A DNA stretch of 64,000 nucleotides from Candidatus Nanoarchaeia archaeon. Its GTDB lineage: Archaea > Nanobdellota > Nanobdellia > Woesearchaeales > WJIZ01. Within the stretch, counting starts at the first letter, position 1, and each line of letters starts with the position of its first letter. The stretch is taken from assembly GCA_028279765.1 (NCBI GenBank), contig JANQND010000022.1:26149-90148 (forward strand), in the 5' to 3' direction. A program made the position numbers and the translations under genes. The notes under the pieces were generated by a model. The model did not search any database. It saw only the letters and a list, made by a program, of their open reading frames with translations, and had not been told where the DNA came from. Positions 17,308 to 45,700 of the stretch are shown piece by piece.

Positions 17308-18243
17308 TTATGGTACGCTCCTAAACTTCGTGTTCACGATGACCCACTCAACAGAGAGTGTGATAAAGGTAAGAATGATCAGCCAAAGAGTCAGTTTAAC
17401 GGGCAGTTTTTTTGTTGAAGTGCGTGCAATTTCAGCATATGCAGATTGCAGCTGATCATTATTTTCCGCTTTGTAGAAGCTCCCTCCGGTATTCCTTGCA
17501 ATACTAACCAAAGAATCCTCATCAAGAGTAGAAACTGCTTCAATATCCGGTAGTTGACCTCCCTCGGAAGTTGCCATTCCGATGGTATTAACAGTGACAA
17601 ATTTTTCGTTTGCATAGTTAATAGCTTTCTCAACATACGTTCCCACGTTGCTCTGCCCGTCAGTGAGCAGGATTACTGACCTTCCTTCTTCCTCTGATAT
17701 CAAAAGATTAACTGCGCTGATGATAGCATCGCCAACAGCAGTTCCTGATGCAAATTCAATCTCTACGCTGTTCATTGATTCCCTGACAGCATCCGTATCA
17801 TCGCTAAGCTCATGCTTAACAAATGTAGTGCCTGAGAAGCTCATCAGGCCCACCTTTGAATCAGCAGGAACCCTGTCAATAAAAGCAAGTGCAGCATTTT
17901 TTGCCGCCTCTAACCGGTTAGGGTCAAAATCATTTGCAAGCATGCTTCCGGATGCATCAAGAGCGATCACATAATTAAATGTTCCTCCCTCACCATCATA
18001 CCAAAAAATAGGTCCGGAGAGAGCAAAAATAAGAAACAGCAGCGTAAAAAAACGAAGAAAAAGCAGTGGCAGGTTCATCGAAAGCTTGTTTGCCCCGCTT
18101 ACCCGTGCCAGGGCCTCAAAGTTAGCGAATCGCATAGCTTTCCTTCTGCTGAATTTTAAGCCATAGAAATGAGTGAGAATCAAGAATGGAATAATGAACA
18201 ATATCCAAAGATATCCTGGATTGATGAAGGTAAGCTCGACCAT
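17308..18243 (-). CDS. von Willebrand factor A domain membrane protein (BatA-like)
   Basis: N-terminal TM; MIDAS motif YVIALDASGSM…LTDGQSN; C-terminal TM. 311 aa. Immediately downstream of DUF58/MoxR. Confidence 0.75.
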   Translation of the reverse strand: MVELTFINPGYLWILFIIPFLILTHFYGLKFSRRKAMRFANFEALARVSGANKLSMNLPLLFLRFFTLLFLIFALSGPIFWYDGEGGTFNYVIALDASGSMLANDFDPNRLEAAKNAALAFIDRVPADSKVGLMSFSGTTFVKHELSDDTDAVRESMNSVEIEFASGTAVGDAIISAVNLLISEEEGRSVILLTDGQSNVGTYVEKAINYANEKFVTVNTIGMATSEGGQLPDIEAVSTLDEDSLVSIARNTGGSFYKAENNDQLQSAYAEIARTSTKKLPVKLTLWLIILTFITLSVEWVIVNTKFRSVP

Positions 18244-18255
18244 GGTGTATACTTC

Positions 18256-19152
18256 TCAACTCTTATATTTTTGCCTTCTTCTAAAAAATTCGAAAACGGC
18301 GCCGGTGAAATCCTTATCGGTCTCAAAAGTAAGCAGGCTTGAGTTTGTTTTCTTTAGTTCTGTCTGCAGCCTTGAGATCTGGCTCTTAGAGGCCTGCTCA
18401 TAATCCTGGCGTGCCTGAGCGGGGTCTATTAGTACGTTCTGTGGTGAAAAAGGATCCTTGAGGTACACCTCGCCCCCCATATCCGGAAGTCTCATGTCGA
18501 CCGGATCCCTTATGACAAACAAAGAAAGGTCATACTTCAATCCTGCAACTTTCAGCAGGTTTTCCCATCCTGGCTTGAGGCCAATAAAATCCGAGATAAT
18601 GAATACAATTGCCTCCTTGGGGACAAAACCCAGATTCAGAATATAATTGAGAGAGTAATTCAGGTCAAAGCTTCCTCCATAGTAAGAAGGGTCCTTTAGT
18701 GTCCTGATAATACGATAGAATTGATTTCTTCCGATAGCCGGAGGGATAACAGGATTTATGCGATCGCTAAACATTGCCATTCCTACATTGTCGCCTACCT
18801 GATGCATCGCATAGCTTAATGTTCCTATAAGCTCTGCAGCAAATTCACACTTCAGTTTATTATGAGAAGAAAAAAGCATACTGTCTGAAACATCAAACAA
18901 AAAAAACACCGTAAGGTCCCGCTCTTCTTCCATTACTTTGACCATCGAGCGATGTGCACGAAGGGTCGCTCTCCAGTCGATAAGCAGTGCATCATCTTCG
19001 GATGAATATTCTCTAAAACCGACAAATTCAAGTCCTTTACCCTTGAAAACCGATTGATAGGTTCCTGCCAGCAACTCCCTGGAGAATCCTTTCTTAAGAA
19101 CAGCTTCAAGCTTGTTAATCAGTGGAAGAATATCAACTTTTATTTCTTTCAT
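18256..19152 (-). CDS. DUF58 protein (MoxR-associated, vWA-like)
   Basis: FKGKGLEFVGFREYSSEDDALLIDWRATLR is the DUF58 signature. Degenerate vWA (FLFDVSDSM). Confidence 0.8.
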   Translation of the reverse strand: MKEIKVDILPLINKLEAVLKKGFSRELLAGTYQSVFKGKGLEFVGFREYSSEDDALLIDWRATLRAHRSMVKVMEEERDLTVFFLFDVSDSMLFSSHNKLKCEFAAELIGTLSYAMHQVGDNVGMAMFSDRINPVIPPAIGRNQFYRIIRTLKDPSYYGGSFDLNYSLNYILNLGFVPKEAIVFIISDFIGLKPGWENLLKVAGLKYDLSLFVIRDPVDMRLPDMGGEVYLKDPFSPQNVLIDPAQARQDYEQASKSQISRLQTELKKTNSSLLTFETDKDFTGAVFEFFRRRQKYKS

Positions 19153-19190
19153 GTTTCATCCTGCTCTTTGCAAGAGACCTATATACATAG

Positions 19191-20492
19191 CTAAGGAACA
19201 GGAACCTTTCGCAAAATTTCTTCGATAACGCGCTCTGCTTTAATTCCTTCTGCCTGTCCTTCATAGCTAAGTATTAATCGATGGCGCAGCACATCATAAG
19301 CAATGGTTTTGACATGATGCGGAGTAACATAATTTTGGCCGTTGAGTACTGCCTCAGCTCTTGCGGCACTGATTAGCCCTATCGAGCCCCTGGGAGATGC
19401 ACCAAATTCAACATAGCGGCCAAGCCCCACACCATACTTTTTAGGGAACCGGGTTGCATCAATAAGCTTCACGATATAATGCTCCACTTTTTGGTCGACA
19501 TACACTTTTTTTACATCATCTTGAATCTTAAGGATTAAGTCAGGGCTAAGAACTGCCTTGACTTTAAAATTTTCAAAGGAATGAGTGGAAATATTTGAAC
19601 GCAGTATACGCTGTTCCTCATCAATATTCGGGTATCCCATATAAATTTTGAAAAGGAAACGGTCAACCTGAGCTTCAGGCAGGGAATAGGTTCCAACGTT
19701 TTCCAATGGGTTTTGGGTTGCCATAGTAAAAAAAGGAAGAGGGATAGGAAACGACTCTTTTGCGATGGTTGCTTGCTTCTCCGCCATAGACTCCAGCAGG
19801 GCAGACTGAACCTTAGGCGGAGCCCGGTTGATTTCATCTGCTAGGATGAAATTATTAAAGATAGGGCCTTTCAGGGTATAGAATCCTCTCCCTTCCTGAT
19901 AAGTACTGATTCCGATAATATCAGTAGGGAGCAAATCAGGAGTAAACTGAATTCTTGCAAATGAACACCCTGTCGTTTGTGCGAGAGTTCGAATAAGGGT
20001 AGTTTTTGCAATTCCCGGGACTCCTTCCAGTAAAACATGTCCGTCCGAGATAAGCGCACGGATGAGCCCTGTAATTGCCTCATCCTGGCCCACAAGAATT
20101 CTCTGCACTTCTTTTCTTACAGTAAGAAACAACTTTTGATAACTCTGGATTCGTTTTGAGAAGCTTTTATTATCAAGTATTTCTGCATGCTGCTCCTCAA
20201 CGATGTGCTCCTGCTGTGTATCCTTGATTAAGTCAGCTACTTTGCTAATCTCTTCTTTTTCAAGAGAGGGGTCCGGTTCCTGATGCTCTTCCTGCGGCTG
20301 CTCAGGCTGTGCTTCCTGTTCATCAACCTGTTCAATTTGCTCATCAATCTCTTCAATTTTCTCCGAAGATGAGGGATTATCTCCTTTGTTAAGCATATCC
20401 TGTTCTAATTCCAGTTTTTTTCGCAGAAGATCAAGCTTAGAAGATGACGAAGCCTTTGAAACCCTCTTTTTTTCACTCTTCACTTTCCCCAT
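19191..20492 (-). CDS. MoxR-family AAA+ ATPase
   Basis: Walker A GHVLLEGVPGIAKT; LLPTDIIG; Walker B ILADEINRAPPKVQSALLE. Unusual roughly 110-aa acidic coiled N-terminal extension. Confidence 0.85.
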   Translation of the reverse strand: MGKVKSEKKRVSKASSSSKLDLLRKKLELEQDMLNKGDNPSSSEKIEEIDEQIEQVDEQEAQPEQPQEEHQEPDPSLEKEEISKVADLIKDTQQEHIVEEQHAEILDNKSFSKRIQSYQKLFLTVRKEVQRILVGQDEAITGLIRALISDGHVLLEGVPGIAKTTLIRTLAQTTGCSFARIQFTPDLLPTDIIGISTYQEGRGFYTLKGPIFNNFILADEINRAPPKVQSALLESMAEKQATIAKESFPIPLPFFTMATQNPLENVGTYSLPEAQVDRFLFKIYMGYPNIDEEQRILRSNISTHSFENFKVKAVLSPDLILKIQDDVKKVYVDQKVEHYIVKLIDATRFPKKYGVGLGRYVEFGASPRGSIGLISAARAEAVLNGQNYVTPHHVKTIAYDVLRHRLILSYEGQAEGIKAERVIEEILRKVPVP

Positions 20493-21241: not shown

Positions 21242-21865
21242 CTAGGCATCCAATCCATCAAGAATGCAAAAATACCCCAAGGGCGTGTGCATTACTTCAC
21301 TATTCCAAGAATCGACTTCTTGTTTGGTATACCGTTTTACCCTTGTGAAATCCTTTATCTGAAACAAATTACCTTTAATTTGTTCAAGAATGAGTCCTAT
21401 TGACTTGAAATATGTATTAGCATGATGATCATCAAATTTCTCACCGTAAACTGAAAGAATGACTTTCCTTCCCAGCCGTTTCATTTGTTCAAGAGCTTGT
21501 TTCTCATTGGAAATATAGCCTAAAGTATTGTTTAAACAAATCACGTAGTCGAACCGCGGTAAATCCGCAGGATTTGAAATATCGCCAAGAATAAAGTCAG
21601 CTCGATAGCCTAACTGAGAAGCACTCTTCCTTGCTATTTCAATGAGAGAGGATTCAATTTCGATTCCTGTGAGCACAAGGTCAGGCCTTTTATCAAGAAG
21701 AGCAAATATCCTGCTGCCATCCATGCTTCCTACCTGAAGAACTGTAGAGGAGCGGGGAAGCTCTTTGCAGAGCAAATCAATTTCGTAGAGCCAGTTTTCT
21801 CTGTTCAGCCTTGGTAGCTTTTCAAGCACATCGCAGTTCACATACACCTCTTTTGCATCAGGCAT
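21242..21865 (-). CDS. class I SAM-dependent methyltransferase
   Basis: VLQVGSMDGSRIFAL (motif I-like) and DYVICLNNTL (motif II-like), 207 aa. First gene after the surface island on the same strand. Confidence 0.55.
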   Translation of the reverse strand: MPDAKEVYVNCDVLEKLPRLNRENWLYEIDLLCKELPRSSTVLQVGSMDGSRIFALLDKRPDLVLTGIEIESSLIEIARKSASQLGYRADFILGDISNPADLPRFDYVICLNNTLGYISNEKQALEQMKRLGRKVILSVYGEKFDDHHANTYFKSIGLILEQIKGNLFQIKDFTRVKRYTKQEVDSWNSEVMHTPLGYFCILDGLDA

Positions 21866-21916: not shown

Positions 21917-24900
21917 TCATCCCCTTCTTCTCACAATTAATGAGACGATCACCACCAAAGCAATGAACAGGAGCAATAACAGCACACCGCTTACCAGCTT
22001 GAACAAGTCCCCTTCTCGCTGTTCAATAGGCACAGGCTGTTCAATCTCTCTGGGGTTGGTAACCAGGTAACGGCAGCCTTCAATAACAAAGTTGATCAGG
22101 TTGCGTGACTCTTCAAGGTTACCCTGGTCAAAAGAAGCCTCTGCCTCAGAAAGAAGCTCCGTAAGCTCAAGGCACTCAGGGTTATTATTGAGTAAGTCCC
22201 GTACAAATTCTATTTGGTTCTCTTCAATCGAACGATTATTTTCTATCCTGGCGATTCCCGTAACCGAGATTATTGAAGAGTCAGTGTAATCCGGGTCTCG
22301 GGAAGTAGCATTCACAATTACATCGAATTCTCCAATGGTCCCCTGCCACTGCATAAAGAGCATAAGCTCTTCAGACTGCCCGGGCCCTAATGATGAAATA
22401 GAATTTTCAGAGAACCAGGTTTTGACCTTATCACTATTCGTAGTAGCCTGCAGGTCTATGCCTGTCAAAATGACTTCAGCATTATTCTTCAGCACAATTG
22501 GCGCAACTACCGTATCATTATCGAAAGTGGTTAGGTGTGCCGGTGAAATTAATTCAAGGTATCGTGGTTCAGTTACTGTTCTTGTTCGTGTCTTGAATGA
22601 TGTTTTTGTGGTGGAAACAAAAATGAACTCTACCGAAGAAGTTTGATCAGCCTGTTCAACGGTAACAGACAGGTTATTGCTGGTAGTGGTATCATGCGAA
22701 TCATTAGCAATAAAGTAAATAGTCTCTGTTCCGAACCAGTCCGTTGGTGCTTCAACTCCGACTACATGGGAATCATTGTTAAGGGTTATAATCACGTTAC
22801 TGTTCCCTGCTGCGGTGAACACTACCGTATCGTCAGTATCAAGGTCAGAGAAATAATCATCCAGGTCTATCCAGTTCTGATTCGTTGTGCCTTGGCTTAG
22901 GCTGAGGTCTGGAAGGATATAGTGTATTTTAATGCTGCTCACATTTGGAGTGATACTCGTATCATTGGTCTCAAGGATGATCTTATACTGGATGTAGGTT
23001 GCATTCTCAGACACGATTTGTTCTCCGGAAGAGTTCAGATAGCTTCTATTAAGTGCAACAGTGCTCCAGTTATTCCAGTTATTTCCGTTCTGGCTTGTTC
23101 TGGTTTGCATAGATGCATTTGTTCCGTTCGGGGTTATTGCCGACCAGCTGATGGTAGTGAATCCGATGGGGCTGTAGAAGCTATTAAAGAGCGGCCCAAT
23201 ATCGATTGCAGCGGAGACAAATTCTCCGTATGTTGCATACGATCCTGTTCCGCTTGCAAGCAAAATGCCGCCTGTAGTAGTGTTAGTACTATTGTCGGTT
23301 CCGGAGCTAAACTCAGAATGCTGATCATGATGAATAGTTCCGAACACAGGTGCCCTGTTAGTATTATTTACCGTGATGTTCCACACAAAGGTGTCGTTCA
23401 GTCCTCTGCCATCTGAAACGACCAAAGTAAGGTTGTGAGCTCCTGCTTCCAGGAAGCCAAGCTCGTAGGTATAGTTCGAGGTCTTACTATTAGTAAGCAG
23501 GGTTCCGTCTTTGTACCAGCTGGTATTTATGGAGTCTCCGTTGGCATCTGTGGAGGTATGGTTGAAGAGGATTGAAGTATTTTCTGCAAGAGTTATCGAA
23601 GTGGTATTCATTGGGAAATCCGATCGGTTAGCAAAGGCAAAGACAGTGGATGTTGATACAGGGGTCCCATACGGGCGGATTTGGGTAATATTAGGAGCAG
23701 TATTAAATGCGCGGATGGTCAGGTTGAACAGCTGCGTAGTCTCTTTTCCCATAGTGTCGTTAACAGTCAGGTTGATCACGTGGACTCCTATAAAGGTGGA
23801 ATTTGGAGTAAAATTAAAGTATCCCGTTGAGTCATTGATCACGAAAATGTCTGCACTGGCATTAGTCCTGAATCTAAGAAGAGACTGTGCATCCTCCTCA
23901 TCCGTAGCATTAGCATCATAGGAAAAGAAGGATCCCTCATCAGCAATAAGGTTTGGAATCGGAGTAAGTACAGGAGCATCATTGAAAAAGTCAATAGTAA
24001 GGTTTATGGTTTCGTTATCTGATACTCCTGCACTGTCTGTTACATTAAATGTGATGGAATAGTTTCCTACATCACTGGCATTAGGCGTGAAGGTAAAGAA
24101 TCCCGAACTGGCATTGATAACAAAGAAACTCGAGTTCGTTGCAAAAGTAAGCGTATCATTATCGGGTGTCAGGGTATCATTATCTGTTGCATTTATAGTT
24201 AGGTTAAAGGGAGTATCCTCTGTTAAGAGAAGATTTCCAATGAGGCCAAGAATAGGGGCATCATTAGTGTTATTCACCGTAAAGTTCAGAATTCTGGAAG
24301 TGTTATCGTAGCCATCACTAGCGGTAATATTGATCGAATGGTTCCCTACCTGAGCATTAGTGGGGGTAAAACTAACGAATCCCGAGGAATTTACAAGGAA
24401 CCAATTCCCTCCTCCAAGAACCTCAGCAGTGATAGTTACGATGTCTCCTGCGTCCGGATCAGTTGCATTAATCTGGCAGGTATAGGGTTGATCCTCAACA
24501 GCAGTAGCATTGTCTTGGCACCAGTAATGAATAGTTGGAAGCTGGTTAACATTGAGGACAGTAAAATTGACAATGATTTCATCATAGAGACCGTCACTAT
24601 CATTCACCGTGATGTTCATATGGAATACCCCTACATCATCATTGATAGGAGTGAAGTTAATCATTCCTGACGTGGCGTTGAGTATCAGGCGTCCCGAGAA
24701 GGTATTGTTGAGAGTAAAATAAAAGGCCTCTCCCAATGGGGTAAGGCTGTCTTCATCACTAACATTCTTAGTAAGATTATGGGAGAACAGCGAAGACTCA
24801 GGTGCAGTAAGGTTTCCAATATTAAGGGTAGGGTGCTCCGGTGTATTGTTCACTGTGAAGTTAACCAGCCGGGAGCTTGATAGCCCGTATTGGTCTGTCA

Positions 24901-27900
24901 CGGTAAAGTTCAGCGTATGGTTCCCAACTTCTGTATCATTAGCAACAAAGCTCACATTTCCACTTGTAGAGTTGACAATGAACCAGCTCGTATTAACACT
25001 AAAGGTGAAACTATCCCGTTCTAAATCTGTTGCGTTTACATGGCATCTATGTGTCTGGTTTTCCTGTATTGTGGTGTTATCGTCGCACACATAATCAAAA
25101 ACAGGGGCAGTATTATTTCTGATAGTAAGCACAAACGTGACATTCGAGCGGGTTGCGGACCGGTCAGTAACATTCATCAGGATAGTATAATTCCCCTTCT
25201 CTCCCTCTGCTGCAGTAAAGGAGATCAGTGATGCAGTCTCATTCACTTTTACTGCAGAAAAGAAAGTCGAATTGGTTCCAAAAGTCAGGTTTTCGCTATT
25301 GTTATGGAAACTATTGCCCGGCTGGTTAAAGTCATCATCAAATCCGGTAACATTGTACGAGTAGAGCAGGCCAACTATTGCTATCTGATTTGAAATATTG
25401 AAAAGGCCCGGGACATCATTAGTGTTATTGACCGTGAAGTTGAAGTATGTGTTTACACTAAACGATCCGTCAGATACTGTCAGATTAATAGTATGATTGC
25501 CAACGTGCTGGTTTTCTGCAGTAAAGTTTGCAAGGACTTCCTTGCTCGAGACGGTTGTAAGGTTAAACCAACTGACATTTGTACTGAAAGTAAGAGTATT
25601 GTTCTCCTGGTCTGTAGCGTTAATAGTACAGCTAAAGGCTATATCTTCTAGAGCAGATCGCGAACTGTCACACACGTAATCAAAAACAGGGGGGTTATTA
25701 ATATCATTAACAGTAAAGTTCACAAGCTTCCATCCTACACCGCTATTGCTATCGGTAGTCGAGATGTTAAGAGTATAATTTCCCGTATCATCGTTGACAG
25801 GTGTGAAATTAATAAGGCCCGTAGTCAGGTTCATGATCAAAGTCAAGCCGGTACAGTTGCCGGGATCATAAGGGCGGGTACAGGAGAGAATACTATAATT
25901 GAATATCGAAAGGCTGCTATCTTCCTCATCTGTTGCTGTAAGCTGGTAGGTATACAGGGTTTCTGTGGTTGCATCAGTAATGGTATTACCTGATGGCTGT
26001 GTAAATACAGGAACATCATTAACAGCAGTCATGCTGATGTCAAGGGTAGCTGAATCAGGAGCATTATCACTGTCTTTAACAGTAAGCTGAGGAGACCAGG
26101 GGCCCTCTATCGCGTGGTCGCTGGTAGTAACATAAACCGTCAGGTTTCCGTTTGTGAAATCAAACGACCAGCAATTGCTGCAGTCGCTATGGGAAGTAAG
26201 GTTTGATATGGAACCTGCAGTATAATCATAGCTAAGCACATCATTAATGTTAGAGTCATTGGCATATTGGCTGATATTATAAGAGCAGGGAATGTCTTCT
26301 ATGCAGGCAACGGAAGGAAGTTTTCCCTCTGTCTTATTGAATACCGGGGCGCTATTATTAATAATAATGCTATCAGTAGCATTAAGAGTAGGCATGGTCG
26401 CATTCGTGCAGAGCACATTGAAATAAGATACACCTTTGTACGGTATTTTTCTGCTGAAATTCCAGGGAACGGATCCTCCATGATAGCTCATGTTCTCGGT
26501 ATCCTGGAAAGATCCGGTAAAGTTGAAACTAATCTCGCAGGTTCCGTTTGCAATGGCAGTACTGTTTGTATAGTTTGCATAGAAAATAATCTCATTAGTG
26601 GAATACCAGGTGCCTGAGTCAGTCGAATCCCAGATGGAAATGTTTCCTTCAGTGGTGTTATAGCTTGCATAATTATTTGCGTATGCGGTTGTATTTCCAA
26701 AAGTGAATTGCTGATTATGAATTCCGGGAGTAAGAACCTGCACGGTCCAGTAACCGGTGTCATTACATTCATATCCTTCATATGATGCACTCTTTCCTCC
26801 ATCCCACACGTAAGAGAGAGTGTCATCTCCGCACATCAGCGATAAAGGAACCAGATCGTCAGGAAGCGCATTTCCATAATTGGTATCGGCTATCGCGCTT
26901 AAAGTAAGGTTTGCCCTTCCAAGGGTAGTGAACTCAACGGTCCAGTTTCCTCCCACGGTAGGGTAGCTCTGCACATTAAGAACAGTAATATCAACCTCAT
27001 ACGTCTGATTAGAAAGGTGAGGAACTATCCATTTGATAGAATCGATGAGCCCATTTGAGTTTTCATCGATTCCTTCAAAGGAAACCTGAAGGCGAGTATC
27101 ATTAATGATATGATAAAGCGTTATTGCATCAAGCGGCTTCTCATCAATCGCAGTGTATGCCAAAATATTTGTATAATGCACATCAGAGCTAATCACTATC
27201 TTCTTTCTTGAATCACTGATATTCTCCTCCTCGGAGAGTGGGGCCTCTGTGGTGTAGTGCACCTCTATTTCCTGGGCGCTCTCGTTAATAAGGAGCCGGG
27301 TCTCGGTCTCACTGCTAATAAGCTCTTCAGATTCAAGAGCTTTAACCAGCGCAGACTCTTCTATTTCCTCTATGGATGTGCTGACACTGTCCAGTGTTGT
27401 GTCAGGGTATAGTACTGGTTGAGCAGAAGAGCGGTGCGAGGAGAGTCCCTTTGAAGCTTTGCCGGAACTCTTTTTCGTCTCTGTCTTTTCTTTTTCTTCA
27501 AGCAAAGTAATTCTCTGATCCAGTTTTGAAATCTGAGCAGTAAGGATAGTAATCTGTTTCTGAGCAGATTCTTTCTTCTTTTGCCCGGTCTCCCCAATCA
27601 ATTGATCAGCAAGTATGTCCTGCTTTTGCTCATACATTACCTTCAGTTCCGAGAGGAGGGCAACATCTTCTGGATCATTCGTTTTTTGTTTCAGCTTTCT
27701 CTTGATCTGTTGATTGAGATGCTTGCTAGTAGTCTCCTGTGCAAATTCAGTAAAATTCTTCTGCACATCGTCAGTAATCACTGCAAGGTTAGATGGGGAA
27801 ACTTCCTGCTTTTGTCCGCCATTGATGGTATAAACAGAAACATTAAATGCCTCTGCTGGAAGCCCTACCTCGACATTATCTTCTGAATCAGTAGCTACTA

Positions 27901-30900
27901 GTGATCTCTTCCATAATACTGGTTTTCCTATTTCTACTGGTGATGCCGGTGCGAAAGAATCTGCTGAAGAGTCTGTTGAAAGTTCTTCAGATACTGCGCT
28001 TAAAATAGTAGCATCATCACTTCTGTTAGTATTGGGTATGGCGGCAGAATCCGAAACATTAGCTGCAACCAGGATTTCGACAATATCAGACACTGTGCTC
28101 TGCTTTGAGTCATTTACAATGAAGAATGTGTATGCAGACCCTTCAAATCCTGGATCTGCACTAATAGTCACTAAGCTATCTTCAATAGTGAGGGATACGC
28201 CCTGTGCATCATAAGCATGGTAATAGAGATCATCATTATCTGCGTCGGTAGCATAGAGCCCTAGATCGAAAGAATAGGAAGAATTTGCGTTCATCACAAT
28301 AGTTTCAATAGTAGATAATTGTGGAGCGCTGTTAGAGATAAGAGATGACCGCTTATACGTAGCATTAGAAAGCAGGATGCTTCCGGAAGTTACGTCAATC
28401 ATCAGTGTACCTGCTGAGAATGAAGGAAGAGAGCAGCTCTCTACACAAATATCTGTGAAAGGCACCATCTCAGGCTGGAAGATAGCACTCAGTCTCTCTG
28501 CTTCAGATTCGATAATCTCGGAGTATGGATTAAGCGGGTCCAGGCTATAGTTAGCACTGATAACCTTCGCGCTAACAACATTCTGTTCTCCTGCTCCCTC
28601 TTTTTCTCTGTTCAGATAAAACGTATCATCCCATTGGTCGCGCTCAGGTCTGAGCTCTACAAGGCCACAGCAGGAAGTGCTCCCATAGCAGCTATATTCA
28701 TTTCCCGAATCATGGCTAACAGTCCAGAGTGTACAGAGATTACCAACATCCCTATCCCAGCTGAACCGTGTATCGCTAACAGAGAAGTCAACTACACCCT
28801 GAGTTGATACTATTCCGTTATTGTCAGGGTCCCAGGGTGTCCCTCCGTGGTAGCGCAAGACCATATCAATAGCTTTCTTGTTCTCAGAGAAAGTAATATC
28901 CTGGCTTTCTCTTATGAGAGTGTAGTTCCGAGGAGCAACGAGAGAACTGTCAAGTACCAGGACTCTCTCTTGCGCACTGCCGGCGTAGACCCGTATCTTT
29001 GCATCCCTTGAGAGTGCTCCACTTAAAGTAAGCGAATCCAGCGAGCCGCTAATTCCTAAATCCACCTGGCCGGAATCGTCAAAAGTAGTGTCGAGCATCA
29101 GAGAGGTGTCTCCAAAGACAACACCGCCAGAGTCTTCAAAGATAACGCTGCCGGTGATTGCGGGATTCGTGAAGAGATACATACTGCCAAAAAGGCTGAT
29201 CATTAATAAGAGGACTAAAGCCGTCCTATTTCTGTTTCCCTTTGAGGGTTTCTTCTTTTTGGAGAGCGCTGTTTTCTGGCTCGCTTGCTTGCTGGATTTT
29301 TTATTTGCCTGATAAACAGAGTCAACTGCTACAGCAGAAGTTTTCTTCCTGATAGTAAACTCTATCAAAGAAATTGCTTCCTGAGCAACCTTCTTGAGGT
29401 CAGCAGCAGAAATAGCCTTAGCACTATATTCAATGTCAATAAGGCGATCAAAGAATGGCTCAACCCTATGCCTGACAAAATCTTCCTTTCGCTTCTCGCT
29501 TGATGTGGTTCCCTCATAAGCAAGAGTAAATTGGCGGTCAAATCGTTTCTTGTACCAACCTCGCATAAGAGCACTGAGTTGCTTAGTGAGAGTGTTTCTG
29601 TTCTCTTTAGGGGCTTTGAGTATGATATCATTCAGCCGGGCGATAACATCTTCTGAAGCACGAGTGATAAGAGTTCTGGATTTCCCGGATGGTTTCAGCA
29701 ACATATTCTTAAGCGCGCCTGGTGCATTCTTCATTCTATCGAAAAGGGCATGAACAAAGGAAATTCCATTCAGAGTTCTCAACAATTCCTTCAAATGAGA
29801 GTGCCTTGGTTTTTCTCCTTCCGGTTTCCTTTTGTGTTTCCTTCTTCTCAAGAAAAGGAAAAGAGCCAAGAGAATAATTAGTATAGCAAGGACAATCCGC
29901 CAAAGAGAAAGCCCCTCTTCACTCTGCGGAGTCAACTGCTCAACTTGTACTTGCTCAATGTATTCCCCAAGATTGCAGGGCCTGCAGGGTCCACCGCAAT
30001 CTATCCCCTCTTCGCACAGCTCACTTCCGTCATCCTGAGCATGACAGTTCAGCACAGAATCAAAGCAGGTCACACACTCATTAGGACAACCTGCACCGCA
30101 GTCAACGCCTTGCTCCCCGAAATTCTGAATACCGTCTGAGCAATGCTCAATAAACTCACAAGACCGGGTAAGGTTAGGCTGGAATTTAGTAGTCCCGCAT
30201 CGGTTAATATCAGTACAGTTTCGCGCAGCAGATCCACTGCCACAGGCAGACCATCGTGAACAATGCCACTTTTCCTCACAGCGAAGCAGCTTTGCGGCGC
30301 CACCGCCACCGCCGCCACCGCCACCACCGCCTCCGGCAGTAGAGGGAATAGTTACCGTTTCAGGAACATTGGTAACCGTGTAATTAGCACAGACGATTTT
30401 TGAAGAGTCAATGGTATCATTGGCCTGATAACAAACAGTCTCTACTCCGAACCAGTTTGCAGCAGAGCTCAGGGTAACAAAGTGGCTTGCCGGGCAATTA
30501 ATTCCAAGAGGATTGATATTATTATCAACCGTAACAGTTATTTGCGGAGATGCTGTTAAATGAGATACAGTGTACTGCAGGCAGTCGCCATCTGAATCAT
30601 TGAAGTAGCCATCAAGATTATAGGCGATGATTGTGGTATCTTCATTCCAGGAAGCATCCAGGCTATCAGGATTGCCAGTATACTCAGGAGCGGTATTATT
30701 TGCAACTACTGTTATATTGACCAATACCGACGTATGATCAGCTGTGCAATTGCTGGTGTCATTAACCGTGATATTCAGAATGTGGTCTCCGATATGCACA
30801 ATTGATGGGGTGATATTAAGTGCTCCGGTGGACGAATCAAACTGCATGAATGATTCAAAGGAGGAGAATGAGGTATAGTTTTCTTCAACTACAGAGAAAA

Positions 30901-31618
30901 CAAGGCTGTCTTCTACATCAGCATCGGTTGCGTTAATCGTGATATTCCAAAGGATATTTCGGGGAAGGGTGTAATTGGAGCCAATAGTAATAACAGGAGC
31001 AGATTTGGCATTGCAGCCCTTAGTAATCTTTAAGCTAAGAATATCTGTTGAAACATTATTATTGCATCCGCTTCCATCATCAACACTGATGTTAAAATGG
31101 CTTGTTCCTAATGCAGTGATATTCGGAGTGAAGTTAATAACTCCTTCTGATACCGTAATGTTGAACAGTGTTGCATTATCACTAAAGGTAAATATCGTCC
31201 CAAGGTTGTTATCACTTACCGTCACATTGCAATAGTATTCATCAGTCACGTTTACAGTAGTAAGGCAGGATGATAGATTTACCTGAGGAGGATCATTTAC
31301 GCAAAGCGAAGTAACTCCGGTAACGACAAAATTTCCTGTCACAAGATCAGGTCCGCCTGCTGAATTCGCAGAGGTAAGTAAGTAGAGGTTGACGCCAACT
31401 GAAAAGAGTACAAAAAGGAGTACCAAAGCAGCAAGAGAGTTATTAGAAACTGTCTTTCTCTTCTCAGAGAAAGAAAGATAGTCACGAATAATAGACTGGA
31501 CCCGAAGAGGAGTATATCCTTCGCGCAGAAGAGACTCTTCGATAGCCTGAAGAGAATACCCTTTAGCACGACAATGAGCCACGTATTTTCTCAGTCCGAA
31601 TCTACCTTTCTCTTCCAT
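21917..31618 (-). CDS. giant polytopic surface protein (3233 aa) with four TM segments and two ectodomains
   Basis: 9.7 kb uninterrupted ORF. N-terminal about 60-aa cytoplasmic domain. TM1 (about 31370–31430). Ectodomain 1 of about 490 aa with Ig-like repeats, a (Gly)12 tract and an EGF-like Cys-rich block. TM2 (about 29840–29900). Roughly 210-aa basic cytoplasmic loop. TM3 (about 29160–29220). Ectodomain 2 of about 2380 aa with coiled coil, the shared SDVHYTNIL module and Ig/cadherin-like repeats. C-terminal TM plus RRRG (21917–22000). Dense N-x-S/T sequons. Confidence 0.8.
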   Translation of the reverse strand: MEEKGRFGLRKYVAHCRAKGYSLQAIEESLLREGYTPLRVQSIIRDYLSFSEKRKTVSNNSLAALVLLFVLFSVGVNLYLLTSANSAGGPDLVTGNFVVTGVTSLCVNDPPQVNLSSCLTTVNVTDEYYCNVTVSDNNLGTIFTFSDNATLFNITVSEGVINFTPNITALGTSHFNISVDDGSGCNNNVSTDILSLKITKGCNAKSAPVITIGSNYTLPRNILWNITINATDADVEDSLVFSVVEENYTSFSSFESFMQFDSSTGALNITPSIVHIGDHILNITVNDTSNCTADHTSVLVNITVVANNTAPEYTGNPDSLDASWNEDTTIIAYNLDGYFNDSDGDCLQYTVSHLTASPQITVTVDNNINPLGINCPASHFVTLSSAANWFGVETVCYQANDTIDSSKIVCANYTVTNVPETVTIPSTAGGGGGGGGGGGGAAKLLRCEEKWHCSRWSACGSGSAARNCTDINRCGTTKFQPNLTRSCEFIEHCSDGIQNFGEQGVDCGAGCPNECVTCFDSVLNCHAQDDGSELCEEGIDCGGPCRPCNLGEYIEQVQVEQLTPQSEEGLSLWRIVLAILIILLALFLFLRRRKHKRKPEGEKPRHSHLKELLRTLNGISFVHALFDRMKNAPGALKNMLLKPSGKSRTLITRASEDVIARLNDIILKAPKENRNTLTKQLSALMRGWYKKRFDRQFTLAYEGTTSSEKRKEDFVRHRVEPFFDRLIDIEYSAKAISAADLKKVAQEAISLIEFTIRKKTSAVAVDSVYQANKKSSKQASQKTALSKKKKPSKGNRNRTALVLLLMISLFGSMYLFTNPAITGSVIFEDSGGVVFGDTSLMLDTTFDDSGQVDLGISGSLDSLTLSGALSRDAKIRVYAGSAQERVLVLDSSLVAPRNYTLIRESQDITFSENKKAIDMVLRYHGGTPWDPDNNGIVSTQGVVDFSVSDTRFSWDRDVGNLCTLWTVSHDSGNEYSCYGSTSCCGLVELRPERDQWDDTFYLNREKEGAGEQNVVSAKVISANYSLDPLNPYSEIIESEAERLSAIFQPEMVPFTDICVESCSLPSFSAGTLMIDVTSGSILLSNATYKRSSLISNSAPQLSTIETIVMNANSSYSFDLGLYATDADNDDLYYHAYDAQGVSLTIEDSLVTISADPGFEGSAYTFFIVNDSKQSTVSDIVEILVAANVSDSAAIPNTNRSDDATILSAVSEELSTDSSADSFAPASPVEIGKPVLWKRSLVATDSEDNVEVGLPAEAFNVSVYTINGGQKQEVSPSNLAVITDDVQKNFTEFAQETTSKHLNQQIKRKLKQKTNDPEDVALLSELKVMYEQKQDILADQLIGETGQKKKESAQKQITILTAQISKLDQRITLLEEKEKTETKKSSGKASKGLSSHRSSAQPVLYPDTTLDSVSTSIEEIEESALVKALESEELISSETETRLLINESAQEIEVHYTTEAPLSEEENISDSRKKIVISSDVHYTNILAYTAIDEKPLDAITLYHIINDTRLQVSFEGIDENSNGLIDSIKWIVPHLSNQTYEVDITVLNVQSYPTVGGNWTVEFTTLGRANLTLSAIADTNYGNALPDDLVPLSLMCGDDTLSYVWDGGKSASYEGYECNDTGYWTVQVLTPGIHNQQFTFGNTTAYANNYASYNTTEGNISIWDSTDSGTWYSTNEIIFYANYTNSTAIANGTCEISFNFTGSFQDTENMSYHGGSVPWNFSRKIPYKGVSYFNVLCTNATMPTLNATDSIIINNSAPVFNKTEGKLPSVACIEDIPCSYNISQYANDSNINDVLSYDYTAGSISNLTSHSDCSNCWSFDFTNGNLTVYVTTSDHAIEGPWSPQLTVKDSDNAPDSATLDISMTAVNDVPVFTQPSGNTITDATTETLYTYQLTATDEEDSSLSIFNYSILSCTRPYDPGNCTGLTLIMNLTTGLINFTPVNDDTGNYTLNISTTDSNSGVGWKLVNFTVNDINNPPVFDYVCDSSRSALEDIAFSCTINATDQENNTLTFSTNVSWFNLTTVSSKEVLANFTAENQHVGNHTINLTVSDGSFSVNTYFNFTVNNTNDVPGLFNISNQIAIVGLLYSYNVTGFDDDFNQPGNSFHNNSENLTFGTNSTFFSAVKVNETASLISFTAAEGEKGNYTILMNVTDRSATRSNVTFVLTIRNNTAPVFDYVCDDNTTIQENQTHRCHVNATDLERDSFTFSVNTSWFIVNSTSGNVSFVANDTEVGNHTLNFTVTDQYGLSSSRLVNFTVNNTPEHPTLNIGNLTAPESSLFSHNLTKNVSDEDSLTPLGEAFYFTLNNTFSGRLILNATSGMINFTPINDDVGVFHMNITVNDSDGLYDEIIVNFTVLNVNQLPTIHYWCQDNATAVEDQPYTCQINATDPDAGDIVTITAEVLGGGNWFLVNSSGFVSFTPTNAQVGNHSINITASDGYDNTSRILNFTVNNTNDAPILGLIGNLLLTEDTPFNLTINATDNDTLTPDNDTLTFATNSSFFVINASSGFFTFTPNASDVGNYSITFNVTDSAGVSDNETINLTIDFFNDAPVLTPIPNLIADEGSFFSYDANATDEEDAQSLLRFRTNASADIFVINDSTGYFNFTPNSTFIGVHVINLTVNDTMGKETTQLFNLTIRAFNTAPNITQIRPYGTPVSTSTVFAFANRSDFPMNTTSITLAENTSILFNHTSTDANGDSINTSWYKDGTLLTNSKTSNYTYELGFLEAGAHNLTLVVSDGRGLNDTFVWNITVNNTNRAPVFGTIHHDQHSEFSSGTDNSTNTTTGGILLASGTGSYATYGEFVSAAIDIGPLFNSFYSPIGFTTISWSAITPNGTNASMQTRTSQNGNNWNNWSTVALNRSYLNSSGEQIVSENATYIQYKIILETNDTSITPNVSSIKIHYILPDLSLSQGTTNQNWIDLDDYFSDLDTDDTVVFTAAGNSNVIITLNNDSHVVGVEAPTDWFGTETIYFIANDSHDTTTSNNLSVTVEQADQTSSVEFIFVSTTKTSFKTRTRTVTEPRYLELISPAHLTTFDNDTVVAPIVLKNNAEVILTGIDLQATTNSDKVKTWFSENSISSLGPGQSEELMLFMQWQGTIGEFDVIVNATSRDPDYTDSSIISVTGIARIENNRSIEENQIEFVRDLLNNNPECLELTELLSEAEASFDQGNLEESRNLINFVIEGCRYLVTNPREIEQPVPIEQREGDLFKLVSGVLLLLLFIALVVIVSLIVRRRG
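30299..30334 (-). repeat. in-frame (GGY)12 trinucleotide tract encoding Gly12 in giant protein
   Basis: Plus strand reads gccaccgccaccgccgccaccgccaccaccgcctcc; it translates on the minus strand to GGGGGGGGGGGG immediately before the Cys-rich block. Confidence 0.85.
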
Positions 31619-31781
31619 GCGCCTCCTTCTCTTTGCTAATATTTTCTATAACGACGTTCTTTTGCCCGGGAATTTTAGAAATCAGAATGGTATCGCCGTT
31701 CTCCCAGCCCAGAGCCTCAACCAGTTCCTTAGGGATATTAATAGAACACTGAGAATTAGATTTAATACAGACTTTGGGCAT
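31602..31781 (-). CDS. AbrB/SpoVT (swapped-hairpin) family small DNA-binding protein, 59 aa, not in ORF track
   Basis: I translated it as MPKVCIKSNSQCSINIPKELVEALGWENGDTILISKIPGQKNVVIENISKEKEAHGRER. S..GQ.sI.IPKEl.e.LGw..GD.i core of the SpoVT_AbrB domain. Its 3' end overlaps the ATG of the 3233-aa giant gene by 17 nt. Confidence 0.6.
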   Translation of the reverse strand: MPKVCIKSNSQCSINIPKELVEALGWENGDTILISKIPGQKNVVIENISKEKEAHGRER

Positions 31782-31783
31782 TT

Positions 31784-31834
31784 TAACGTTATTCTAACGT
31801 TAGCTTATATAAATGTTTTTAAAAAATAACGTTA
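31784..31834 (-). promoter_or_regulatory. promoter/operator region: TATA-like box (31805–31814) flanked by three TAACGTTA palindromes (31784–31791, 31795–31802, 31827–31834)
   Basis: The 8-bp perfect palindrome TAACGTTA occurs three times within 51 bp, with spacings of 11 and 32 bp (1 and 3 helical turns), bracketing TTATATAAAT. This sits about 25 nt upstream of the AbrB-like ATG, consistent with an archaeal leaderless promoter with operator sites. Confidence 0.45.
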
Positions 31835-31960
31835 TTCATAGCTATTTAAAGGAAATTTCTATCAGAGCCCCGCTCTGTGCACAAATAAAGAGATAAAAAG
31901 AGAAAAAAGATGTACAGAATAATTACCATATAGAAAAATAATAAGAAATAAAATAAATCC

Positions 31961-31999
<39 letters not shown>

Positions 32000-32000
32000 T

Positions 32001-32825
32001 TCAGTAAATTTCAGAATGATCCAGCCTTCCTCCCTGCCGATCATAGGCAATAAGGCGAGTATGCTCAGAGACTTTGGGGACAATAAACAGAAGCGATGCA
32101 CCGGTTGTGCGGCCCTTTTCGATAATCGTATAGTCGAGCCAGTCACGGAGAAGGTCTGAATCGTACTCGACATTGTAGAGACGGCCGGTTTCATCCTCAA
32201 GGCGCATCTTGAAAGGATCGTAATAGAAGCCTTGCTCTTGTTTGTAGTCCAGTATTTCAGGTTTATCAATGCCTAGGTTCTTGATCTTAAACCGAACAAT
32301 CAAGTATGTATGGTCAGTATCAGACAAATCAATGTCGACATTAGGTATGCGGTTCCTTTTTTCATACTCAGTTACCTTGATCTCTAATTGTTGTTCACAA
32401 TCTAAGGCACAGGAAAAGAAATTTTCTCCGCCGCTACAGAGATTATCACCACAGCACGGAAGAATAGGATCAGAAAGGCATCGCCCCAGCTGAAAATTGT
32501 AATAATCTTCAGTACAGGCATCACCATCGTTGCACTCCTGCGGACAGTCCTCTGACCAGGGAAATTCTCCTTCTTCGCACACTCCATTCCCATCACAGGG
32601 AGAAATCTCTTTATGAAGACAGGCATAGCCCGTCGTTCTGCTGCAGGTATCCAAAGTGCAGGCATCTCCATCATCACAGCTCTCAGGACAGGAAGGTGTT
32701 TGAATAGGGCAGTTTTCAAGATCAATCACTTTAGTAACGCCGTCAGGGCAAAGAAGAAATTCTTCCTGAACGCATCCGTACAGTATCAGGAGACCTAAAA
32801 TAAAGATGAGATTCCTCTTTTTCAT
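32001..32825 (-). CDS. secreted Cys-rich lipoprotein-like protein with C-terminal beta-sandwich domain
   Basis: Signal plus lipobox-like MKKRNLIFILGLLILYGC. About 115-aa region with 24 Cys in EGF/defensin-like spacing (CPESCDDGDACTLDTC…CNDGDACTEDYY…). C-terminal about 130-aa domain (DUF4352-like). Confidence 0.65.
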   Translation of the reverse strand: MKKRNLIFILGLLILYGCVQEEFLLCPDGVTKVIDLENCPIQTPSCPESCDDGDACTLDTCSRTTGYACLHKEISPCDGNGVCEEGEFPWSEDCPQECNDGDACTEDYYNFQLGRCLSDPILPCCGDNLCSGGENFFSCALDCEQQLEIKVTEYEKRNRIPNVDIDLSDTDHTYLIVRFKIKNLGIDKPEILDYKQEQGFYYDPFKMRLEDETGRLYNVEYDSDLLRDWLDYTIIEKGRTTGASLLFIVPKVSEHTRLIAYDRQGGRLDHSEIY

Positions 32826-42700: not shown

Positions 42701-45700
42701 ATTGATAAGGGTTCGATATCCCTGTACATGAATGCCATAATCAATATTCTTTCGAATAGTGGCATTTTCGACCAAAGTATCATTTCCAAGGATTTGCATT
42801 CCTCCATAAGCCTCTTCCAAAGTGGAGTCTCTAAACTCAAAATTAGAAGTATTAACCTGGAAAATAAATTCATAAGTCTCGTTAGTGGCATTTATGAGCG
42901 ATTGGTTCACAGACATGCTTGCGGAATCCTGTACATAAATTCCTACATTTTGGTCACCGGTGGCATTCATGCGAACCTCACAATCCAGAACATTAAAGGT
43001 TCCGGTAACGGAGATATTGAGGTGTGCAACAATGCAGTCAGTATACGAACTGGAGCAGGAGGAGACAACATCATCATTGTTGACGGTACTATACAGTGAA
43101 CTGCAGGTCTCGGTTCCGGTAATATTAATCCAGTCGTTGGAGAAGGAAACACTACTGGACTTATACGTAGTAAAGTGAGTAACGTTAAAGAGCAGAATTG
43201 AAGATGCGAAACTCAGGTTCTGGCATATGCCTGAAGGGCAAAGGTCAAAACTTCCGTCATCCTCGAAATCAACCAATATGCTCTGGACAATTGACCCGAG
43301 GTTATTCAAAGTGATGTTTGCACTGGTATTCAGTCCTGGGTCTTTAGTCGAATTTACGAAAGCGCTATTTGACGAAATACTAATGACATTACTGAGATTA
43401 TCTCCAAAAGCATAGAGTGAATCGTTTATCCATCTGATTTTTCCGTGGGTGTTCACGATCTCAAGAGAGGAGCCGTTGAATTGGTACTCAGTAATTTCGG
43501 AGTCCTCAACATAATAATCCAAAGGAGTAGAGGAAAAGGTATTATTGATAATGATTGTATTAGTTGAGTTAGTAATATTAAATCCACTCAGGTCAGAATC
43601 CTGTATATCAAGACCCTTAAAGAAATTTTGTTGGGACGAGCTTCCTAAATAAACTGCATTCTTTTCCATGTGCTTGAATGTACCACCAGTGAAATTGTGG
43701 CTGCTTGCATTGGTCAGGTATATACCATAGGTAGAGTTGTACATTTCATTTTCAACAAAAACGTTTCCTGCATTAGAATTCTGGCTATAGATGCTTGCTG
43801 TCAGTGTCGATGGTGCAGTAATATTAATCGTGTTGAGAGAAACATTTCCACTTTGCTTTGTTTCAAGCATATAAATTCCGAAGGTATTAAGTGTCCCGAC
43901 TGAATTGGAAGAGGAAATGTTGATCGAGTTATTGTAAACAGTGGAGTAGGCTTGAGATGCACCTATATTATTGAAAAGAATTCCTTGGGCATTACTTCCA
44001 GCAGACTCGAGGTAATTATGTTGCATAGTTGTTGAGTCTATCGATGCAGAACCGGTGGTAGCCAATACAATTGAGTAGGCGGATGCATCTTCAGCATAAA
44101 TAGAGTTGGAATCAATGAGGGTATTATTCATTGATGTTCCCGAAGGATTGAAGAGATAGACCCCAAAAGCACTGGAAGTTCCGTCAACAGCAATATGATT
44201 TTTGATTATTTCATTGGAGTCAATAGAAGATCCTGCAAGGCCATCTAAATAAACTCCGTAGGAAACAGACGAAGAGAGCTGAATGGTATTGTTCGCAACG
44301 GTATTATTACTGGAAAGGGCAGAGCCAGTCTCGAAAGTAACACCAAAAGCAAAGGTACCAGTTGAAGAGTTCAACAGATTATCCAGTATCCTGTTATATC
44401 GATTAACTCCCCCCGCGGTTCTAAAATACACCGGATAACCAGACCCAACGCCTTTGCCATCAAGAATAATAGTATTATTAGTGAGATTATTATATGATGA
44501 AAGGACAGTAGTGTTGATATAGATTCCGTGCGTAGTAGTGGAGAGAGAGGAATTCCTAGTAATAGTATTATTTTCGACAAGGTTATAGTTCGAATCTTTT
44601 AGATAAAGGCCAGAGAGGTCGCTGCCCGTGGATATAAGAATGGAGTTATTTAAGATCAATGAATTATTGACTCGCTCAAAATAAACTCCTCTACTAAGGT
44701 TAATTATTCGATTAAAATTCTTCACCGTAAGGTTCATTCTACTACCGGTATTATTGATTCCATAATCCAGACCGGAACCATCTCCTGTTATGGAATAGCC
44801 ATTGCCATTAACAGTGACATTGTCAGCATAGATAGTAAGGCAGGTTCCGCTGGTAGTCAGGTCATTCTGAAGAGTGTATTCTGTGTTTGGATCCTTGAGT
44901 GGCCTGCAAATAGTAACATTAGTCCCGGTCTCAAGGCTTACTTCCCGTAGTTCAGTAGAGTTTACGAAGCCAGAGCGGTCCTGCGTGTGAGCCCTGAAAG
45001 AATATGCGCCGTTTGTAAGGTCGGTGAAGTTTCTCGCAAAGTAGTGAGTGGACTGATTAGCGTACAGCATTTCGATTTCTACAGGAGTAAGTGTCCTGTT
45101 GAAGATCATCAGGTCATCAAGAGTCGCATTAAGGTAAGCATCGGTAGCGCCTCCTCTTCGACCAATAAGCAGAGGTTGAGTGTTAGGGACAAGCCAGGTT
45201 ACATCACCACATTCCCCAATTTCTTTCCCGTTCACATAATGGGTGACATTCCCTGAGATAAAGGTCATGGCCCCATGCATCCACTCATCCATATCAAATT
45301 GAGTTGTAGTTATCGTACAGGCTGTTGCACCGTTATTTGAGCCATATATCATCGCCCTATCACCAGAGTAGGATTGATGGTGTGTATAAATTCCAAGCTG
45401 ATAGGCACCAGTAGTATCTGCCGTAGTAGGTGTCTTGCTGAAGACATATGAAGTTGCTGTACCATCACTTTTCTGATAAGGATACGCCCACCAGGAAACC
45501 GTCCAGTTATCGTAGAGATCTAAGGAATCATGATCTTCAACTTGCAGATAGTCAGTAGACGGGCCGTCACTGAAGCGTACACCTTTTCCAAAGTATCCAT
45601 CATCTACCTGCACTGCAGAGCCGTACTTTGTAACAGTGTGATTATAGCTGCTATAATCCTGGAAATCTCCGGAGCCGTTAACATCCATTCGAAGCCATAG

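Follow-up and report, generated by a model that had tools for sequence, protein, structure and literature searches.

The AbrB-type gene and its promoter

The window analysed here is a 64,000-nucleotide (nt) stretch of contig JANQND010000022.1 from Candidatus Nanoarchaeia archaeon (positions 26,149 to 90,148 of the forward strand). On its minus strand lies a gene for a 59-amino acid protein of the AbrB/SpoVT/MazE type, which runs into the start of a gene for a 3233-amino acid protein. The promoter of the small gene carries three copies of the 8-bp palindrome TAACGTTA, which are likely operators for the small protein itself. The regulator and its promoter consist of the following elements, in window coordinates.

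31602 to 31781, minus strand: 59-amino acid single-domain AbrB/SpoVT/MazE-type gene with a predicted leaderless start, identified by its translation, Pfam family PF04014, fold model and homologues
31784 to 31791, no strand: proximal site O1, TAACGTTA, first base at -10 from the ATG, covering the predicted transcription start
31795 to 31802, no strand: proximal site O2, TAACGTTA, at -21, between the TATA box and the start, 11 bp from O1
31806 to 31813, minus strand: archaeal TATA box TTTATATA, first T at -32 from the ATG
31814 to 31820, minus strand: A-rich AAAAACA, a candidate B recognition element (BRE) by its position only
31827 to 31834, no strand: distal site O3, TAACGTTA, at -53, upstream of the BRE and TATA box, 32 bp (three helical turns) from O2
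31899 to 31938, minus strand: T5-T6 runs (T-run starts at 31938, 31908 and 31899) on the 3' side of the upstream 274-amino acid gene, likely archaeal terminators

The open reading frame (ORF) is read from 31781 to 31602 and translates to MPKVCIKSNSQCSINIPKELVEALGWENGDTILISKIPGQKNVVIENISKEKEAHGRER, which holds the hairpin core quoted in an earlier note on this DNA (the original prediction). That note had proposed a swapped-hairpin AbrB-like gene at this position, and the translation, the PF04014 match, the fold model and the signature of purifying selection all agree with it. It had also called the gene unannotated, which was mistaken; an identical protein with PF04014 is present in NCBI and Logan records, and the gene merely fell below the 60-amino acid cut-off of the ORF track. 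Sequencing run SRR20820735 also contains the contig. PF04014 (MazE_antitoxin, the SpoVT/AbrB domain) is matched with 24.9 bits against a cut-off of 24.7 (E = 1.9e-5), and the NCBIfam model TIGR01439 scores below its cut-off (23.5 vs 28.3). An AlphaFold model built from the family alignment has a mean pLDDT of 87, and its monomer follows the beta-beta-alpha-beta-beta order of a swapped-hairpin half-barrel. Fold comparison matches the model to SpoVT, C56, AbrB, MazE and the Sulfolobus AbrB-family 'histone-like' proteins. A search of the PDB with the family sequence profile found no chain at E<=1 except one designed protein, and the subfamily is therefore remote from all solved members. The family is tied to AbrB and MazE by fold comparison only. 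Hidden Markov model and fold together place the protein in the PF04014 superfamily. Past the DNA-binding domain there are only about 12 charged residues, which are modelled with low confidence. Comparison with a 66%-identical homologue (locus L002) gave a non-synonymous divergence (pN) of 0.21 and a synonymous divergence (pS) of 0.96, with synonymous sites saturated. This substitution pattern indicates that the gene is genuine and under purifying selection. PADLOC found no defence-system match for either the AbrB protein or the giant protein.

The three palindromes are perfect and lie at 31784-31791, 31795-31802 and 31827-31834, bracketing the TATA box with spacings of 11 and 32 bp, as the original prediction had described. 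It had placed the proximal site over the start; this site ends 2 nt before the ATG and covers the predicted transcription start instead. On the coding strand the promoter reads TAACGTTA-24 nt (…AAAAACA TTTATATA AGC)-TAACGTTA-GAA-TAACGTTA-AA-ATG, where TTTATATA on the minus strand (31813-31806) corresponds to TTATATAAAT on the plus strand. Five copies of TAACGTTA were observed in the 64-kb window against 0.59 expected, and none of 100 shuffles gave five or more. From this background rate, the chance of three copies within 51 bp was calculated at about 1e-7. The remaining two copies, at 43180 and 53269, are isolated within a 9019-amino acid ORF and look like chance occurrences.

The usual archaeal TATA box lies about -30 to -23 from the transcription start. 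With this spacing, a first T at 32 nt before the ATG places the predicted transcription start 0-2 nt before the ATG, and the AbrB mRNA is probably leaderless. There is no room for a Shine-Dalgarno sequence before the AbrB ATG because the proximal operator fills that space. With a leaderless start, the two proximal sites would span the interval from the TATA box to the start, and the distal site would lie just upstream of the BRE position. With spacings of 11, 32 (3 x 10.7) and 11 bp, all sites face the same side of the helix. The promoter is of the archaeal and not the bacterial type. The window carries the archaeal housekeeping genes aIF5B, Trm1, RtcA and DUF460, and its aIF5B is 74-76% identical to proteins from metagenome-assembled genomes (MAGs) of Woesearchaeota and Nanoarchaeota. 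These genes place the host among the DPANN archaea, with a G+C content of about 42%.

The T-runs after the 274-amino acid gene suggest that the AbrB promoter probably begins a separate transcription unit. A perfect (CTTT)9.5 microsatellite also occurs in this interval at 31961-31998 on the minus strand, directly after the stop of the 274-amino acid gene (32001-32825); the AbrB start lies about 180 nt further downstream. The T5-T6 runs come after this repeat, which may be a slippage-prone element or part of the terminator. An Rfam scan of 31000-32600 returned nothing credible.

A rare protein family in DPANN archaea

A word-indexed search with the 59-amino acid protein recovered one homologue only. 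When 1.84 billion representatives were searched exhaustively with HMMER, 23 clusters matched at E<1e-3, and a profile search extended the family to 61 proteins of 51-111 amino acids. PF04014 is matched by 54 of these 61 at E<=0.01 (best 1.2e-9). The organisms named for family members are Nanobdellota, Pacearchaeota and Nanoarchaeota. Judged by these matches, the subfamily is rare, belongs to DPANN archaea and comprises about 60 sequence clusters. The complete DPANN genome CP061211.1 is among those that carry a member. In the species-representative genome set no member was found except in one Nanobdellota MAG, and protein-based scans of genome contigs and metagenome contigs added a single locus, L132. 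No family member was found in the viral contigs of IMG/VR. The comparisons below cover 13 independent loci that encode family members, the window included.

Two departures from the short single-domain form were seen within the family. Members of 108-111 amino acids (P0004, P0005, P0026, P0029 at L133 1234-1560, and L132) carry a coiled coil (…LEQEN..L.ETIEIL…) fused C-terminally to the AbrB domain. A long lysine-rich tail is present in P0015 and P0028.

Conservation of the proposed operator sites

TAACGTTA occurs at matching promoter positions in 11 of the 13 loci, whose homologues are 37-66% identical. Two promoter architectures were distinguished. Class A comprises the window, L002, L133, L132, L134 and L125, and class B comprises L126, L128, L135, L139 and L140. 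Throughout the 91,094 nt of class-A and class-B loci, all 25 exact copies of TAACGTTA lie within 70 nt upstream of the AbrB ATG, and none occurs elsewhere.

All six class-A promoters have a site at -52/-53 and a TATA-like octamer at -30 to -32, and L134 and L125 have an extra site at -63. The class-A proximal sites are at -20/-21 (filled in L002, L133, L134 and L125 as the equivalents of O2) and at -9/-10 (filled in L002, L133, L132 and L134 as the equivalents of O1). In L002, which encodes the 66%-identical homologue, the promoter reads AAACGTTA-24 nt with TATA-TAACGTTA-3-TAACGTTA-1-ATG. The 24-3 spacing of the window sites is repeated exactly in L002 and L133, with unrelated intervening sequence. 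Site quality differs among loci; the distal site is perfect and the proximal sites degenerate in L134 and L125, the reverse holds in L002, and all three sites are perfect in the window. Class-B promoters carry three sites at -29/-18/-7. The -29 site is fused with the TATA box (TTTATAACGTTA), the -7 site runs into the ATG, and no site lies upstream of the TATA box. The spacers are unalike and synonymous sites are saturated (pS 0.96), yet the TAACGTTA sites are invariant. The proposal of an autoregulated operator is strongly backed by this pattern, because TAACGTTA keeps its promoter positions across homologues of 37-66% identity while spacers and synonymous sites have diverged.

The small ORF could in principle be a chance ORF, with palindromes that are chance or low-complexity AT-rich sequence, since it is short and lies in an AT-rich intergenic region. 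This explanation has next to no probability. The 61 homologues are of conserved length, pN/pS is about 0.2 at saturated synonymous sites, the fold model is confident, and the motif is both enriched beyond all shuffles and conserved in position. The homologues, pN/pS and positional conservation refute a chance origin of the ORF and the palindromes.

The two remaining loci, L136 and L141, form a divergent 'QY' subgroup, in which the hairpin reads Q-Y-T/I-I-T instead of the N-x-Q-[C/A/G]-[S/T] found elsewhere, and neither has TAACGTTA. L136 has AATATT cores at -75, -64, -53, -19 and -8, which is the same lattice, and in L141 four TAATATTA/TAACATTA sites are phased at 11 bp. No gene other than the AbrB gene was found in every one of these loci. 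The AbrB protein is by far the most likely ligand of the TAACGTTA sites, because operator core and protein covary, no other gene is shared by all the loci, and the site geometry is fixed with respect to the TATA box and ATG of the AbrB gene.

Alternatively, the palindromes may be bound by another ligand or serve another role (iterons, transposon ends, or methylation or restriction targets), with the AbrB protein acting as a non-specific chromatin-type binder like Sso7c4. Iteron arrays in phages contain the same core, a winged helix-turn-helix (wHTH)-like protein of 82-92 amino acids co-occurs in six loci, and the Sulfolobus 'histone-like' proteins are among the fold matches. However, the window and several other loci lack the wHTH protein, and in every architecture the sites are fixed in place with respect to the TATA box and ATG of the AbrB gene. 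The operator core changes along with the AbrB hairpin subgroup, and the motif is constant while the restriction-modification (RM) cargo differs (MmeI-like, TaqI, MvaI/BcnI, EcoRI-methylase). A different ligand or role is therefore very unlikely. The wHTH-like protein (MAKPIPKWVQERLSKLWKKYG…) accompanies the AbrB gene at L002 (1248-1496) and at L126, L128, L135, L139 and L140, in two orientations.

Genes downstream of the regulator in relatives

The following genes are associated with the AbrB gene in relatives.

L002: MmeI-like type IIG enzyme, 1 nt after the AbrB stop
L134: Eco57I/N6_Mtase enzyme and specificity subunit, beside a divergent Mrr
L126, L128, L135, L139, L140: 73-76-amino acid protein (4-nt overlap with the AbrB stop), DDE_Tnp_IS240 transposase and variable RM cargo
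L126, L128, L135, L139, L140: conserved divergent pair opposite AbrB (about 370 amino acids, and an 84-92-amino acid wHTH-like protein)
L125, L136: homologous 89-98-amino acid Zn-ribbon protein downstream
L133: no downstream cargo; a lone regulator with a coiled-coil fusion
L132: coiled-coil fusion as in L133, on a contig too short to show neighbours
Window, L141: large surface proteins; 3233 amino acids in the window, and in L141 a LamG protein of 1063 amino acids that has a pilin-type signal peptide and begins 8 nt past the AbrB stop

RM or transposase cargo is found in 7 of the 13 loci, and a large surface protein lies downstream in two. The original prediction had raised the prospect of AbrB-like genes preceding giant ORFs in other genomes. 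L141 joins the window in this arrangement, but two loci of 13 do not make it a rule of the family. The association with a giant gene is a real but minority use of a modular unit.

The class-B DPANN mobile modules extend over L126 3543-7544, L128 3533-8375, L135 335-5231, L139 486-5643 and L140 2541-6559. Their RM cargo includes Eco57I/N6_Mtase, N6_N4_Mtase with MvaI_BcnI, EVE with a methyltransferase and TaqI, and EcoRI_methylase with GmrSD/HNH. The module was not found in IMG/VR, and the IMG/VR scans provide no evidence for a viral origin of the cassette or the class-B module. The CPxC zinc-ribbon homologues of 89-98 amino acids follow the AbrB gene in two distant loci (L125 5283-5552 and L136 4267-4563), which suggests that this protein is another conserved partner. 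The 64-kb window has no homologue of the wHTH-like 82-92-amino acid, the 73-76-amino acid or the 89-98-amino acid Zn-ribbon partners of relatives.

The protein might also be an antitoxin, either of a type II toxin-antitoxin pair (MazE/VapB/PrlF-like) or an orphan, in which case the palindromes would be the usual operator of such a system. Its best Pfam model is named MazE_antitoxin, some relatives are annotated as YhaV-PrlF antitoxin, and the class-B 73-76-amino acid ORF overlaps the AbrB stop by 4 nt in the manner of a toxin-antitoxin pair. However, Pfam, PADLOC and PHROGs gave no toxin-family match for these class-B partners. The gene that follows in the window encodes a 3233-amino acid surface protein, no toxin family was detected by Pfam or NCBIfam in seven neighbouring ORFs, and no homologue of the relatives' partners is present. 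The protein ends about 12 residues past the DNA-binding domain, without the long toxin-binding tail of MazE and VapB, and the downstream genes vary between loci. An antitoxin role is accordingly improbable.

The junction with the giant gene

The cargo of the window is defined by two further features.

31622 to 31626, minus strand: GGAGG, the giant gene's Shine-Dalgarno sequence, which falls within the 3'-terminal part of the AbrB ORF and precedes the giant gene's ATG (31618) by 3 nt
21917 to 31618, minus strand: gene for the 3233-amino acid surface protein, the presumed co-transcribed cargo, identified from the ORF list, domain matches, transmembrane segments and N-glycosylation sequons

The giant ORF starts at 31618, and 17 nt (31602-31618) are shared with the end of the 59-amino acid ORF, exactly the overlap with the giant gene's ATG that had been claimed. 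Terminator-like T-runs around the two genes are found upstream of the AbrB promoter only, and in relatives the gap between AbrB and the downstream gene is +1, +8 or -4 nt. Co-transcription of the AbrB gene and the giant gene is plausible because of the 17-nt overlap, the T-runs on the upstream side only, and the equally tight joins in relatives. The original prediction had further proposed translational coupling. Strict coupling is not required, because the giant gene has its own GGAGG and an occluding RNA structure at the junction was not supported (z = +0.87).

The repeats of the giant protein match Big_9, He_PIG, Cadherin_5 and tandem-95 (Ig/cadherin-like). It has a short cytoplasmic N-domain, a transmembrane segment at about residues 60-85, 159 N-glycosylation sequons and a C-terminal transmembrane anchor. 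The transmembrane segments, Ig/cadherin-like repeats, sequons and anchor together fit a cell-surface protein. Residues 1-55 (31454-31618, minus strand) form a cytoplasmic domain (…RKYVAHCRAKGYSLQAIEESLLREGYTPLRVQSIIRDY…) before the first transmembrane segment, without a family match.

The window from about 21.9 to 63.8 kb consists almost wholly of minus-strand genes for surface-type proteins, including a second, larger ORF of 9019 amino acids at 36758-63817. Downstream of the giant gene and an S-adenosylmethionine (SAM) methyltransferase gene (21242-21865) lies a MoxR AAA ATPase, DUF58 and VWA/BatA trio (17308-20492, minus strand), all on one strand.

Proposed mechanism of regulation

The small gene and its promoter probably constitute a portable, negatively autoregulated regulator-plus-promoter cassette, which here would drive the giant surface protein. 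The cognate operator of the 59-amino acid factor would be the palindrome TAACGTTA, with one dimer presumed to occupy each site. The sites, phased at 11, 32 and 11 bp on one face of the DNA, would be filled cooperatively around the core promoter. As the protein accumulates, it would fill the -21 and -10 sites, by which recruitment of RNA polymerase would be blocked (promoter occlusion). In class B, filling of the TATA-fused site would prevent binding of the TATA-binding protein (TBP). Negative autoregulation would keep a leaderless bicistronic (or longer) mRNA, carrying the regulator and the 3233-amino acid gene, at a low and self-limited level, and the giant gene would be translated from its own GGAGG. 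Across relatives, the same cassette appears to have been placed before varied genes that are mostly horizontally mobile or costly.

Several points weigh against this mechanism. The sign of regulation is read from the position of the sites only, and the distal site, upstream of the BRE, could activate. TAACGTTA-N3-TAACGTTA also occurs in more than 120 phage contigs of IMG/VR, as 11-bp iteron arrays; these make up nearly all IMG/VR matches to the motif, so the motif pair alone is not diagnostic. The comparison covers 13 independent loci, and some class-B loci are near kin (L126 vs L140, pS 0.17). Two weak TATA-like octamers inside the small ORF (31767 and 31743) leave room for an independent promoter of the giant gene.

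In the phage contigs themselves (L005-L124), arrays of GTAACGTTAC with an 11-bp period stand beside AGAATAAGAA-type repeats and are presumably replication-origin iterons. The phage GTAACGTTAC arrays share the core of the archaeal operator and are otherwise unrelated to the archaeal promoter.

The most serious alternative to negative autoregulation is an activate-then-repress switch like that of the controller (C) proteins of RM systems. In such a switch, a low level of protein at the distal -53 site would help TBP and transcription factor B (TFB) and activate the promoter, and a high level would fill the proximal sites and repress it. The outcome would be a delayed pulse of downstream expression and not simple repression. 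The distal site upstream of the BRE and the proximal sites over the start suit this arrangement, relative site quality varies between L134/L125 and L002, and several relatives head RM genes, where timing would be useful. However, the window sites are all perfect, so that no affinity hierarchy is visible, and class-B promoters have no site upstream of the TATA box. The switch is considered unlikely, with a better claim than the antitoxin or a different ligand.

Comparison with known regulators

In function, the closest described case is C68 of pSSVx (PMC5569661), an archaeal AbrB-like factor with a single domain, which binds over the BRE of its own promoter. C68 and C56 of the Sulfolobus plasmid-viruses pSSVx and pSSVi consist of a single AbrB domain of about 56-68 amino acids, and the 59-amino acid protein fits them in size and domain. 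There is no detectable sequence homology between them and the window family, and the likeness is in fold only. The C68 motif is TATG(C/GG)TTTTC, in contrast to the palindrome TAACGTTA of the window. C68 and C56 are crenarchaeal, whereas the window family belongs to DPANN archaea, and the phased multi-site lattice flanking the TATA box has not been described for C68.

The C proteins of type II RM systems (C.PvuII, C.AhdI and C.Esp1396I) are similar in layout. In both, a small gene, an apparent autoregulator in the window, precedes and often overlaps the controlled gene, and palindromes lie before its own start. Some C genes also have leaderless transcripts. The relatives at L002 (MmeI-like type IIG, 1-nt gap) and L134 directly precede RM enzymes. 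In contrast, C proteins are Xre-type helix-turn-helix (HTH) proteins, and the window protein has the AbrB fold. C-protein systems have a co-oriented restriction enzyme gene directly downstream, whereas the window cargo is a surface protein. The class-B systems also differ, as their operon holds a transposase and a methyltransferase, with the nuclease on the other strand.

Bacterial AbrB, SpoVT, MazE and VapB proteins share the PF04014 domain family and the fold with the window protein, and autoregulation through operators in their own promoters is the rule among them. The window protein lacks the C-terminal oligomerisation, GAF or toxin-binding region of these proteins. It is set in an archaeal TBP/TFB promoter and has a crisp 8-bp palindrome, whereas AbrB sites are loosely defined. 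The archaeal repressors MDR1, LrpA and Phr have sites between the TATA box and the start and block recruitment of RNA polymerase. By analogy, the proposed promoter-occlusion mode of the window regulator would be shared with them, although the protein families are unrelated. A literature search found no paper linking AbrB-type proteins with RM control or DPANN archaea, and nothing pertinent on the motif.

A wider reading has somewhat less than an even chance. It takes the subfamily as an AbrB-fold functional analogue of RM controller proteins, forming a portable self-limiting cassette. Mobile elements (RM systems and the DDE-transposase module) would use it to give their genes a burst of expression on entering a new cell and to shut them down afterwards. 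Here the cassette would have been co-opted to gate a giant surface protein that is probably involved in host contact. The central dinucleotide of the operator (CG vs TA) shifts with the hairpin (N-x-Q-[C/A/G]-[S/T] vs Q-Y), which on this reading would amount to a recognition code.

Significance for DPANN archaea

The subfamily is an uncharacterised DPANN branch of a known class of regulators with an unusually well-defined operator lattice, and it is not categorically new. The natural covariation of operator and hairpin offers a clean system for studying how swapped-hairpin proteins read DNA sequence. If the covariation holds true, it would provide a natural, testable recognition code for the AbrB fold, the DNA specificity of which has long been unclear. 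At the level of the family, the loci suggest that archaeal mobile elements control RM and transposase genes by an AbrB-fold regulator and not by a C protein of the bacterial HTH type. Transcriptional regulation in DPANN archaea is almost unknown and few of these organisms are cultivated; here the regulator, the operator and the promoter geometry can be read from sequence. The cassette gives a first concrete handle on the possible control of a giant surface protein of a kind thought to mediate contact between DPANN archaea and their hosts.

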